Notes under the pieces: model-generated | Database searches by the model: none | What the model saw: only the letters and a program-made list of their open reading frames with translations | Told to the model about the DNA's origin: nothing | Made by a program: the position numbers and the translations under genes | Shown here: positions 754-1,951 of the stretch, in pieces | Layout: every line of letters starts with the position of its first letter | Numbering within the stretch: the stretch's first letter is position 1 | Source of the DNA: Chloroflexota bacterium | Lineage (GTDB): Bacteria > Chloroflexota > Dormibacteria > CF-121 | NCBI GenBank assembly: GCA_034666565.1 | Contig: JAXDLN010000036.1 | Span: 32,079-96,078 of the forward strand | Reading direction: 5' to 3' | DNA: 64,000 nucleotides

Positions 754-1182
754 CTATCCCTGTTGTTCGCACCAGGCGTATAGGGCGTTGTACACCGGCG
801 TCTCGAGCCGGATCTTCTCGAGGTCATCCTCACCGTGAGCCAGAGCAAAGCCGTGGGCGATAGCCTTCAACCCTGCCGCCTCGGGCACGATGTCGATGTC
901 GGACGATATGTCCGCGCCGTGAACAATCTTGGCGAGCCGCTGCAGAGCCGGGTCAGTCAGTTCGTACTTGATCATGATCGACTCAAAACTGCACCGTCCA
1001 TCCACATGCCCGAGTTCGGCGCCCTTAACGTCAAAGGGGATCGCACCCTCTCGCTGCGCCACCGCCGAGACCTCCTCAGTCGGGACGAACAGGAACTCCG
1101 CATCCTGATCAATGAAGCGCCTGATGAGCCAGGGACAGGCAATCCGGTCCACCTTGGCATTCTTTCGCGTGACCCACTTCAT
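754..1182 (-). CDS. ChrB C-terminal-domain protein (chromate-resistance regulator-like), paralog 1
   Basis: Start taken at MKWVTRKNAKVDRIACPWLIRRFIDQDAEFLFVP, the ChrB_C-like signature (VDRIAxxWLIRRFIDxxAxFxFV). GGAGG sits 7 nt upstream of the ATG at 1180-1182. The ATG overlaps the TGA of the upstream paralog (ATGA). Confidence 0.6.
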   Translation of the reverse strand: MKWVTRKNAKVDRIACPWLIRRFIDQDAEFLFVPTEEVSAVAQREGAIPFDVKGAELGHVDGRCSFESIMIKYELTDPALQRLAKIVHGADISSDIDIVPEAAGLKAIAHGFALAHGEDDLEKIRLETPVYNALYAWCEQQG

Positions 1183-1610
1183 TCTTGAACCTCCTTCCTG
1201 CTCCCGCCGCACTTGAGGTAAAGCTCCTCGCAGATCGGACGGCCACGACGGAGGCGATCGTCGTCGGCAATATCGGCATCCCTAAGCTCGTTGAAGGCGG
1301 CTGCCACGGCCGCCATGCCTGCCGTTCCTTCTGAATCGAACGGCATGTCGATCGCCCGGACGATCTCTCCCATTCTGCGCAGGGCCGGGTCGCGTAACTC
1401 GTAGGAATCCAGCAGCACCTCGAAAGTGCACCGACCTAAATGGTGCCCGAGCTCGGCCCCTCGCATGTCAAAGGGGATGGCGTCGAGGGCACTCACATCG
1501 GTATTGCGATCGACAAAAACAAACGTGGCCTCCGGGTCGACAAACCGACGGATCGCCCACGCCGTGGCGATCCGATCGACATGGACCTTCGAGCGAGTGA
1601 CAAACCGCAT
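1179..1610 (-). CDS. ChrB C-terminal-domain protein, paralog 2
   Basis: Start at MRFVTRSKVHVDRIATAWAIRRFVDPEATFVFVD. About 45% identical to paralog 1 over the whole length. Its start lies 5 nt after the stop of the ChrB N-domain ORF. Confidence 0.6.
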   Translation of the reverse strand: MRFVTRSKVHVDRIATAWAIRRFVDPEATFVFVDRNTDVSALDAIPFDMRGAELGHHLGRCTFEVLLDSYELRDPALRRMGEIVRAIDMPFDSEGTAGMAAVAAAFNELRDADIADDDRLRRGRPICEELYLKCGGSRKEVQE

Positions 1611-1615
1611 CGGCG

Positions 1616-1951
1616 TCAGCTCGCCCCGCGTGTAAGTGGGCTTCTGTTCGGTCGCCCCGCTGGATGTGTGGCGGTCCTCCTCCCGGTCGCGAGTCGTCGG
1701 ATGCGCTTCTCGTCCGCCGCGGGCAACTCGCCCACTGGAAGCACCCAGGCGTCGCCACCCCAATCAGCGATGTCCTCGGCGATCCAGTCCATCTGCTCGT
1801 GGAGATCCTCCGAGTAGGTCACAATGGCCGCGCCAGGCGTAAGCGGCACGGCGCCCAAGCGTCGCAACCGCCGCCACGCCGTCACCCGTGGCGTGCTTAC
1901 TCCCGTGGGCAGGCGCCAGATCAGGACCAACCATCGGTGGGCAGGGCGCAT
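1616..1951 (-). CDS. ChrB N-terminal-domain-like protein
   Basis: Taken from the internal M of ORF 1616..2128: MRPAHRWLVLIWRLPTGVSTPRVTAWRRLRRLGAVPLTPGAAIVTY..., which resembles the ChrB N-domain (WLLLIVSLP...R.R.WR.L...GA..L..GV). The upstream 59 aa of the ORF look non-coding, but a start at 2128 is an alternative. Confidence 0.45.
   Translation of the reverse strand: MRPAHRWLVLIWRLPTGVSTPRVTAWRRLRRLGAVPLTPGAAIVTYSEDLHEQMDWIAEDIADWGGDAWVLPVGELPAADEKRIRRLATGRRTATHPAGRPNRSPLTRGAS

Follow-up and report, generated by a model that had tools for sequence, protein, structure and literature searches.

A split ChrB-family gene module with a candidate operator and a deleted MFS partner gene on a Chloroflexota soil metagenome contig

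Introduction

The chromate-responsive regulator ChrB serves as the sensing part of chromate biosensors, and its DNA-binding domain, the logic of its operator and the range of its targets across the family are poorly defined. In Ochrobactrum tritici, ChrB binds its own promoter and represses it until chromate is added; the substitutions R18A and R23A in the N domain lead to constitutive expression, and induction depends on R180, R187 and H229 of the C domain (PMC3817168). Here we analyse 64 kb (the window) of an 866-kb soil metagenome contig, JAXDLN010000036.1, which carries the NCBI label of a Chloroflexota metagenome-assembled genome (MAG) and whose closest named relatives are Candidatus Dormibacterota. 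In this window ChrB-type domains are encoded by three separate genes, which we call A, B and C. On our reading of the sequence, the locus is a known family in a variant form, having a short N protein, a link to a transporter gene of the major facilitator superfamily (MFS) and a defined candidate operator. Comparison loci and contigs carry L-numbers (L001, L002 and so on), and positions given without an L-number are those of the window.

Results

The three genes follow one another on the minus strand (Table 1), and the list of open reading frames (ORFs) and the sequence agree in this with an earlier note on the same DNA. Pfam bears out the domain assignments made there: gene A matches ChrB_N (PF20229, E=7.8e-9), while genes B and C match ChrB_C (PF09828, E=1.5e-39 and E=2.1e-48, respectively). 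The note had also described an N-domain protein of about 110 residues, which stands as far as the domain is concerned but only for its first half, the match being confined to profile positions 1-72 of 159. Hidden Markov models (HMMs) of the N and C domains, built for this analysis, match genes A, B and C alone among the ORFs of the window, and NCBIfam gave no model for these genes or for the 187-residue protein encoded downstream. There is no single polypeptide of ~310-340 residues joining ChrB_N to ChrB_C; instead there are three ORFs, with a stop codon between A and B. Both signs of translational coupling pointed out earlier are seen in the sequence, namely a 5-nt gap (1611-1615) between the stop of gene A and the start of gene B, which lie in different frames, and an ATGA (1179-1182) in which the stop of gene B overlaps the start of gene C. 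Gene C has in addition its own AAGGAGG ribosome-binding site, 7 nt 5' of its start. Upstream lie comEA (SLBB and HHH_3 domains), comEC (DUF4131 and Competence domains) and leuS, so that the placement next to comEA-comEC is likewise confirmed by the domains identified.

Table 1. Positions of the genes and other features of the window discussed in the text.
Feature	Position	Strand	Description
Gene A	1616..1951	-	111-residue short ChrB_N protein (ORF list, Pfam)
Gene B	1179..1610	-	143-residue stand-alone ChrB_C protein, B-type, partner of gene A
Gene C	754..1182	-	142-residue stand-alone ChrB_C protein, F-type (ChrF-like)
Box 2	1960..1975		Palindrome TGTAACCTAGGTTGCG (+ strand), core GTAACCTAGGTTGC at 1961-1974; candidate operator
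Deletion junction	1974..1975		~1.07 kb missing relative to L002 (L002 1699-2767)
MFS remnant	1976..2134	+	52-codon ORF at the former MFS start-codon position (ORF list, blastn, blastp, tblastn)
187-residue protein	74-637	-	Ala/Thr-rich, N-terminal hydrophobic segment; 116 nt after gene C; no Pfam/NCBIfam match
520-residue ORF	34106-35668	-	~13 predicted transmembrane segments; no Pfam match at E<=0.001
tRNA gene	7481-7553	-	Inside the N-terminal extension of the longest leuS ORF (5008-7659)

Could the split be an artefact, or the decay of one chrB gene through frameshift errors, as the earlier note had allowed? The different frames of genes A and B, their 5-nt gap and the fact that gene A spans only half of the ChrB_N profile would fit such a reading. 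However, more than 100 protein clusters (JGI, ENA, NCBI and Logan assemblies) and more than 40 independent loci, across many phyla, show this architecture with these gene lengths, and A-B-C occur together with equal spacing on independent contigs. Homologs of gene A form ~50 clusters of 101-121 residues, a size class distinct from the long forms (~142-165 residues), and gene A itself is not an N protein of ~160-171 residues with a helical half. For gene B there are 1536 clusters, the 120 listed being mostly of ~143 residues, and for gene C at least 8000, the best 120 of which are mostly of 141-151 residues and 79-100% identical to it. Between the window and L015, whose proteins are 80-85% identical, the ratio of nonsynonymous to synonymous substitution rates (dN/dS) is 0.18 for A, 0.12 for B and 0.15 for C; purifying selection acts on all three genes. 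Moreover, the helical segment that gene A lacks is found in none of the three frames. Coupling is tight as well: the N and C genes have a gap or overlap of at most 5 nt in all clear split loci, and an N gene followed by a coupled C gene of ~143 residues is found here and also in L015, L018, L021, L023, L027, L029, L048, L053 and L073. Finally, separate genes are known from Arthrobacter sp. FB24, where a ChrB-Nterm gene (Arth_4253, 171 residues) overlaps a ChrB-Cterm gene (Arth_4254, 143 residues) by 4 nt and a further ChrB-Cterm2 gene (Arth_4249) is present; the split genes, confirmed as separate by resequencing, reverse-transcription PCR and proteomics, are co-transcribed, translated and chromate-induced (PMC2751784). 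In view of this conservation we regard the artefact or pseudogene explanation as refuted, and give it practically no credence. The domain fission proposed earlier thus stands in the sense that the genes are truly separate, although fission as such is already known from Arthrobacter FB24 and from many phyla.

What kind of protein does gene A encode? An AlphaFold2 model of it, based on a 35-sequence alignment, has a mean predicted local distance difference test score (pLDDT) of 81.5 and a predicted topology beta1-alpha1-beta2-beta3-alpha2-beta4-alpha3 (residues 7-92) followed by a disordered basic tail (residues 94-111), and the core is predicted to have a Cas2-like fold. The alignment shows a helical segment (E[YF]..L ... 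RDxF) common to long N proteins and full-length ChrB; the short form, gene A among them, has a variable basic tail in its place. Gene A is therefore the Cas2-like first half of ChrB_N with a disordered basic tail, and not the complete N domain of 159 profile positions. A single-sequence AlphaFold2 model of gene C was unusable (pLDDT 36), and PDB searches by sequence and by profile, made with gene C and with the A and B families, returned nothing significant.

The conserved residues of the three proteins can be compared with those known to matter in O. tritici. In gene A, R22 and R27 are invariant across homologs, and gene B keeps the family-wide conserved T5, R6, R13, W18, D48, H56, C61, D88 and D116. 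Among 101 ChrB_C domains, R6, R13 and the histidine at position 56 of B (59 of C) are 97-100% conserved, as are W18, D51, C64, D91 and D120 in the numbering of gene C. From the alignment and the spacing of residues we infer that R18 and R23 of O. tritici ChrB correspond to R22 and R27 of A, and that R180, R187 and H229 correspond to R6, R13 and H56 of B and to R6, R13 and H59 of C, so that both C-domain proteins would carry the residues of the chromate response.

Genes B and C are 44% identical, close to the figure of about 45% given earlier. To type them, separate HMMs of the B family and the C family were scored on every ChrB_C domain in 86 non-redundant loci. The F-type, that of gene C, takes in all 56 bacterial and archaeal loci that hold a stand-alone ChrB_C alone, and 18 of the 20 extra ChrB_C copies in N-containing loci, whereas clear B-type scores are confined to N-containing loci of a Dormibacterota/Chloroflexota-like group, where the gene usually comes immediately after the N gene. 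The Acidovorax gene at the chrF position also scores F-type. It is the best plasmid match of gene C, at 53.6% identity, and occupies the last slot of a chrB-chrA-SOD-chrF operon on plasmid p1-T1, SOD standing for superoxide dismutase; the N-terminus of gene C (MKWVTR) moreover resembles that of O. tritici ChrF (MKWITRE). Gene C thus groups with the stand-alone ChrB_C proteins of ~140-150 residues found at chrF positions. A recent tandem duplication, the second half of the fission-and-duplication proposal, is ruled out by the 44% identity and the distinct ortholog groups. Since B and C fall in separate HMM groups, the pair is not a local duplication, and the sequences indicate that the two are ancient paralogs, a B-type sensor partner and a ChrF-type accessory protein.

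As the earlier note had observed, chrA is not found in the window: tblastn with plasmid ChrA gave a best E=3.7, and no ORF with multiple transmembrane segments matches Chromate_transp, such ORFs encoding an unrelated MFS protein, an ATP-binding cassette (ABC) exporter and others. The transporter that neighbours these genes in the lineage is an MFS_1 protein. In L002, which is 98% identical in DNA across A-B-C, an intact 420-residue MFS gene (Pfam MFS_1, E=1.2e-25) stands between comEC and A, divergent from A. An intact divergent MFS_1 gene holds the comEC-flanked position in L002, L015 and L022, and the order comEC-MFS-A-B-C with the MFS gene intact is also found in the more distant L015, L016 and L017 (80-85% protein identity). 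Because these distant loci keep it there intact, the MFS gene is ancestral at this position. In the window a deletion of ~1.07 kb took about the first 361 MFS codons together with box 1, one of two palindromes described below. It fused an internal Met codon in frame to the promoter side, and the junction shows microhomology of an ATG. The first 48 residues of the remaining stub match residues 362-409 of the L002 protein at 94% identity, and a second small deletion (~55 bp) lies at its 3' end. L003, a contig assembled independently, has this junction too and is 100% identical over 3062 bp. These comparisons indicate that the lack of an adjacent transporter is a strain-level, recent deletion of a real partner gene, and the missing chrA would then be explained, since the partner in this lineage is the divergent MFS gene that was deleted here.

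A second, independent loss of the MFS gene is seen in L124, a locus found by its DNA motif, in which (1150-2342) both boxes are kept, no MFS gene lies between the boxes and comEC, and gene B has a 30-residue in-frame deletion that removes an invariant Asp; the case fits decay of the sensor after loss of the transporter. Two further alleles show irregularities of their own: the ORF that follows the boxes in L111 (98-1076) begins with MQRKL, as the MFS protein does, and then runs on in unrelated sequence, and L106 (2-909) has its MFS gene broken into two frames. It seems that the MFS gene is easily disrupted at this locus, unless L111 and L106 are assembly errors. In L119 (590-2545) a 490-residue group II intron-type reverse transcriptase/maturase with a YADD motif stands between the double box and the ChrB_N gene.

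Box 2 lies within the 24-bp gap between the ATG of gene A (1951) and that of the MFS stub (1976). In loci with an intact MFS gene, two tandem palindromes of the form TGYAAC-N4-GTTRCA, ~16-18 bp apart, occupy the region between the MFS gene and A; they align in the 8 such loci examined (L002, L015, L018, L021, L022, L023, L025 and L075), in some of which one box departs from the strict pattern. The window retains only the A-proximal box, and the deletion begins exactly at the box edge. An exact 27-mer spanning box 2 and the start of gene A had no match in metagenome_contigs, and no Rfam family, the published chrB-a and chrB-b RNA motifs among them, matches at the boxes.

How specific is this palindrome to the family? 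The core GYAAC-N4-GTTRC has one match in the 64 kb, against 0.13 expected. Among 101 loci, exact matches occur only where a ChrB_N gene is present, typically 18-54 nt ahead of the start of the N domain, and never in loci holding only F-type genes. With the core relaxed to YAAC-N4-GTTR, 25 of the 45 matches in 736 kb lie in the 3.8 kb of sequence, taken together, that stands upstream of N-domain starts, where 0.10 are expected; these cases include low-GC Bacillota (TAACAATTGTTA and TAACCATGGTTA in L034) as well as full-length ChrB genes (L061, L092). In several phyla the region upstream of ChrB_N genes is strongly enriched in the palindrome. In a reverse test, a metagenome collection was searched with the double-box DNA pattern alone, and this returned 23 loci. 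In 22 of them the boxes adjoin an N gene and in 21 they are flanked on the opposite side by an MFS gene; the exceptions are rearranged alleles. As regards transcription, a sigma-70 consensus scan of positions 1-2400 found no promoter. Since box 2 overlaps a -10-like TACACT hexamer 6 nt before the start of gene A, the gene may be leaderless and autoregulated, the leaderless mRNA being suggested by this hexamer and nothing else.

The retention of box 2 also bears on whether the module has been orphaned at all. It might instead control a target elsewhere, a chrA gene or a boxed MFS gene, with the loss of the neighbouring MFS gene being functionally neutral. That A, B and C are intact, with 2 amino-acid and 6 synonymous changes relative to L002, would agree with this, as would the scope of the inspection, which took in ~73 kb of the 866-kb contig. 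On the other hand, the window contains no second box and no other ChrB-domain gene, and L124, which has lost its MFS gene, also has a damaged B. The window and L002 are, moreover, too close (8 substitutions in three genes) to show selection since the deletion. The other MFS gene of the window (15802-17061) was considered as a displaced partner and rejected, as it has no similarity to the deleted gene and no box. We therefore hold control of a distant target to be unlikely.

We turn now to transporters beside ChrB-domain genes in other loci. A divergent MFS_1 gene (~406-424 residues) stands beside short-N and B-type genes in other genomic contexts (L018, L021, L023, L025), and in L075 the N gene beside a divergent MFS gene is of the long form, the C domain there being weakly typed. 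Where split N and C genes have an adjacent transporter (n=16), it is MFS_1 in 11 loci, ChrA in 3 and an ABC exporter in 2, a mixture that fits a general transporter regulator. In two Bacillota MAGs (L028 2419-6056 and L041 5446-9064) the split N and C genes are followed by two ABC exporter genes (ABC_membrane and ABC_tran). The immediate neighbours of stand-alone F-type genes include MFS_1 in 19 of 97 cases and ChrA in 4 of 97. One MFS subfamily, 64-74% identical to the L053 protein, lies at most 400 nt from a ChrB-domain gene, usually F-type, in 15 loci (L035, L042, L053, L056, L058, L060, L068, L069, L073, L074, L083, L084, L087, L090 and L094); these loci are mostly annotated as Anaerolineae or Chloroflexota, and most have no ChrB_N gene or box nearby. 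The orders N-C-MFS-F in L053 and N-C-beta-propeller-MFS-F in L073 parallel chrB-chrA-(chrC)-chrF and Arthrobacter chrK. Stand-alone ChrB_C genes are also adjoined by genes of the 6-pyruvoyl-tetrahydropterin synthase (PTPS) family in 4 loci and by beta-propeller proteins reminiscent of Arthrobacter chrK in 3. Altogether, in the sampled loci the family adjoins MFS exporters more often than ChrA, in 31 cases against 9.

The F-type genes raise the question of whether the ChrB_C proteins, or at least C, are metal-binding protective enzymes such as a Mn-dependent SOD, with the N protein alone being regulatory and the operon serving stress protection without a transporter. O. tritici ChrF was reported, after purification, to be dimeric, to contain 1.0 mol Mn per mol and to have SOD activity (PMC4779226). 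The great abundance and high conservation of F-type genes and their occurrence alone in 56 loci without an N gene or box would suit an enzyme, the invariant D51, H59, D91 and D120 could form a metal site, and the ribosome-binding site of gene C is a strong one. However, full-length ChrB has these invariant residues in its C domain too, and there R180, R187 and H229 are required to sense chromate, and the SOD claim comes from one study with a His-tagged protein. The neighbours of the stand-alone F-type genes, most often transporters, fit a transport-linked role better than a general antioxidant one. We thus think it quite improbable that these proteins act as enzymes rather than in regulation.

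Several other features of the window may be recorded. The only minus-strand terminator-like hairpin in positions 1-2400 lies at 58..35, after the 187-residue gene, and because it comes only there, that gene may be co-transcribed with A-B-C; it has a 208-residue syntenic counterpart in L015 and is absent from L018 and L021. The GC content at third codon positions is 0.77 in A, 0.71 in B and 0.76 in C (754-1951), as compared with 0.82-0.89 in comEC, comEA and leuS (all three within 2131-7467) and in the downstream 187-residue gene, which could reflect horizontal origin or low expression. Four tRNA genes are present in the window. Since one of them sits in the extension of the longest leuS ORF, the real start of leuS must lie downstream, in agreement with the 819-residue product called in L001.

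Discussion

Taken together, our results lead us to propose, with a probability of roughly 60%, that the module is a split sensor-repressor which binds an operator, controls an efflux transporter and has been orphaned in this strain. In this model, gene A would provide a shortened Cas2-like N-terminal domain, gene B the cognate ChrB_C sensor and gene C a ChrF-type paralog. The module would be transcribed divergently from an efflux-type MFS gene, the two sharing a small control region with two tandem palindromes. A complex of A and B, equal to one full-length ChrB dimer, would bind the palindromes and, once bound, repress both the transporter gene and its own operon, until an oxyanion-like ligand in the conserved Arg/Arg/His pocket of ChrB_C releases the complex from the DNA. 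The product of gene C would modulate or buffer the same signal, or else have the protective, Mn-binding function that has been reported for ChrF. In the present genome the regulator would have been orphaned because box 1 and most of the MFS gene were lost with the ~1.07-kb deletion, which left only the autoregulatory half of the circuit, with neither chrA nor the MFS gene adjoining.

A number of points weigh against this proposal. The evidence for the mechanism is in silico throughout. To our knowledge, the Cas2-like fold is not a classical sequence-specific DNA-binding domain, so that either subunit might be the one that reads the box. Our inspection covered the 64 kb of the window and ~9 kb in L001, and a target in trans may lie elsewhere in the genome. 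Against NCBIfam the MFS proteins give weak generic matches of the drug:H+ antiporter type, far below the cut-offs, from which no substrate can be assigned. Upstream of the full-length chrB genes of L004, L014, L038 and L042 the exact box is absent or degenerate. The operator reported for O. tritici is a different, AT-rich imperfect repeat (PMC3817168), and ChrF has been reported as a Mn-containing superoxide dismutase and not as a regulator (PMC4779226).

A wider generalisation can be put forward more tentatively, and we would sooner bet against it than on it. ChrB-family modules, whether split or fused, may constitute a widespread and essentially uncharacterised class of transporter regulators, with a cross-phylum operator (YAAC-N4-GTTR, often in tandem) and mostly with MFS rather than ChrA partners, in which the Cas2-like N domain would be the DNA reader and the ligand of the MFS-linked members would not be chromate. 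If this were true, sequence-specific DNA reading by a Cas2-like N domain would be a new use of the fold.

With respect to the earlier note, its interpretation is partly supported, and its alternative of a regulator unrelated to chromate may yet hold. For the window itself, the missing chrA would signify a recent deletion of the partner gene and not a new regulatory design. More broadly, the locus and its relatives bring together a naturally separated N/C pair, a sharp cross-phylum candidate operator and a link to MFS transporters, and this combination offers a direct way to test the DNA-binding domain against the ligand-binding domain. A search of the literature on ChrB with MFS proteins, or on ChrB-like families, returned a note on the mcr-5 transposon as its sole match; measured against the searchable literature, the MFS linkage, the cross-phylum box and the Cas2-like N domain appear modestly new.

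It is instructive to set the module beside known systems. Gene A resembles Cas2 and the Cas2-like middle domain of PaaX by predicted fold only: it is not a member of the Cas2 family, has no significant sequence similarity to either, lies outside any CRISPR-cas context and lacks the PaaX-type winged-helix domain. The mcr-5 transposon Tn6452 likewise combines a ChrB-domain gene and an MFS gene in a small unit without chrA, but it is a proteobacterial mobile element with mcr-5 between the two genes (PMC6857192). Gene C shares with ChrF, the last gene of chrBACF and chrBAF operons, a ChrB_C domain standing alone in ~142 residues, the start MKW[VI]TR and the last place in the operon. In contrast to those operons there is no chrA or SOD gene here, and gene C directly follows a B-type ChrB_C gene; for ChrF both the Mn/SOD activity (O. 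tritici, PMC4779226) and a repressor role have been proposed.

The closest comparisons are with ChrB itself. Full-length ChrB, the regulator of chrBACF, as in O. tritici TnOtChr and Cupriavidus metallidurans, has homologs of both domains, and the aligned residues of repression (R18, R23) and of chromate sensing (R180, R187, H229) are conserved in our module, which also shares an inverted repeat immediately upstream of the start codon. It differs in being one polypeptide of ~310-340 residues with a helical linker, in adjoining chrA and in its other reported operator sequence, and for it chromate specificity has been shown. The split ChrB of Arthrobacter FB24 differs in other respects: its N protein is the long form of 171 residues, as against 111 residues without the helical half here, and it stands with chrA and with chrJ, chrK and chrL, where our lineage has an MFS partner that was deleted in this strain. 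Its second C-domain gene, too, is non-adjacent, whereas here the two C-domain genes adjoin. Nevertheless the two systems share their basic plan, in which an N gene is directly followed by a coupled gene for a 143-residue C protein and is accompanied by a further C-domain paralog.

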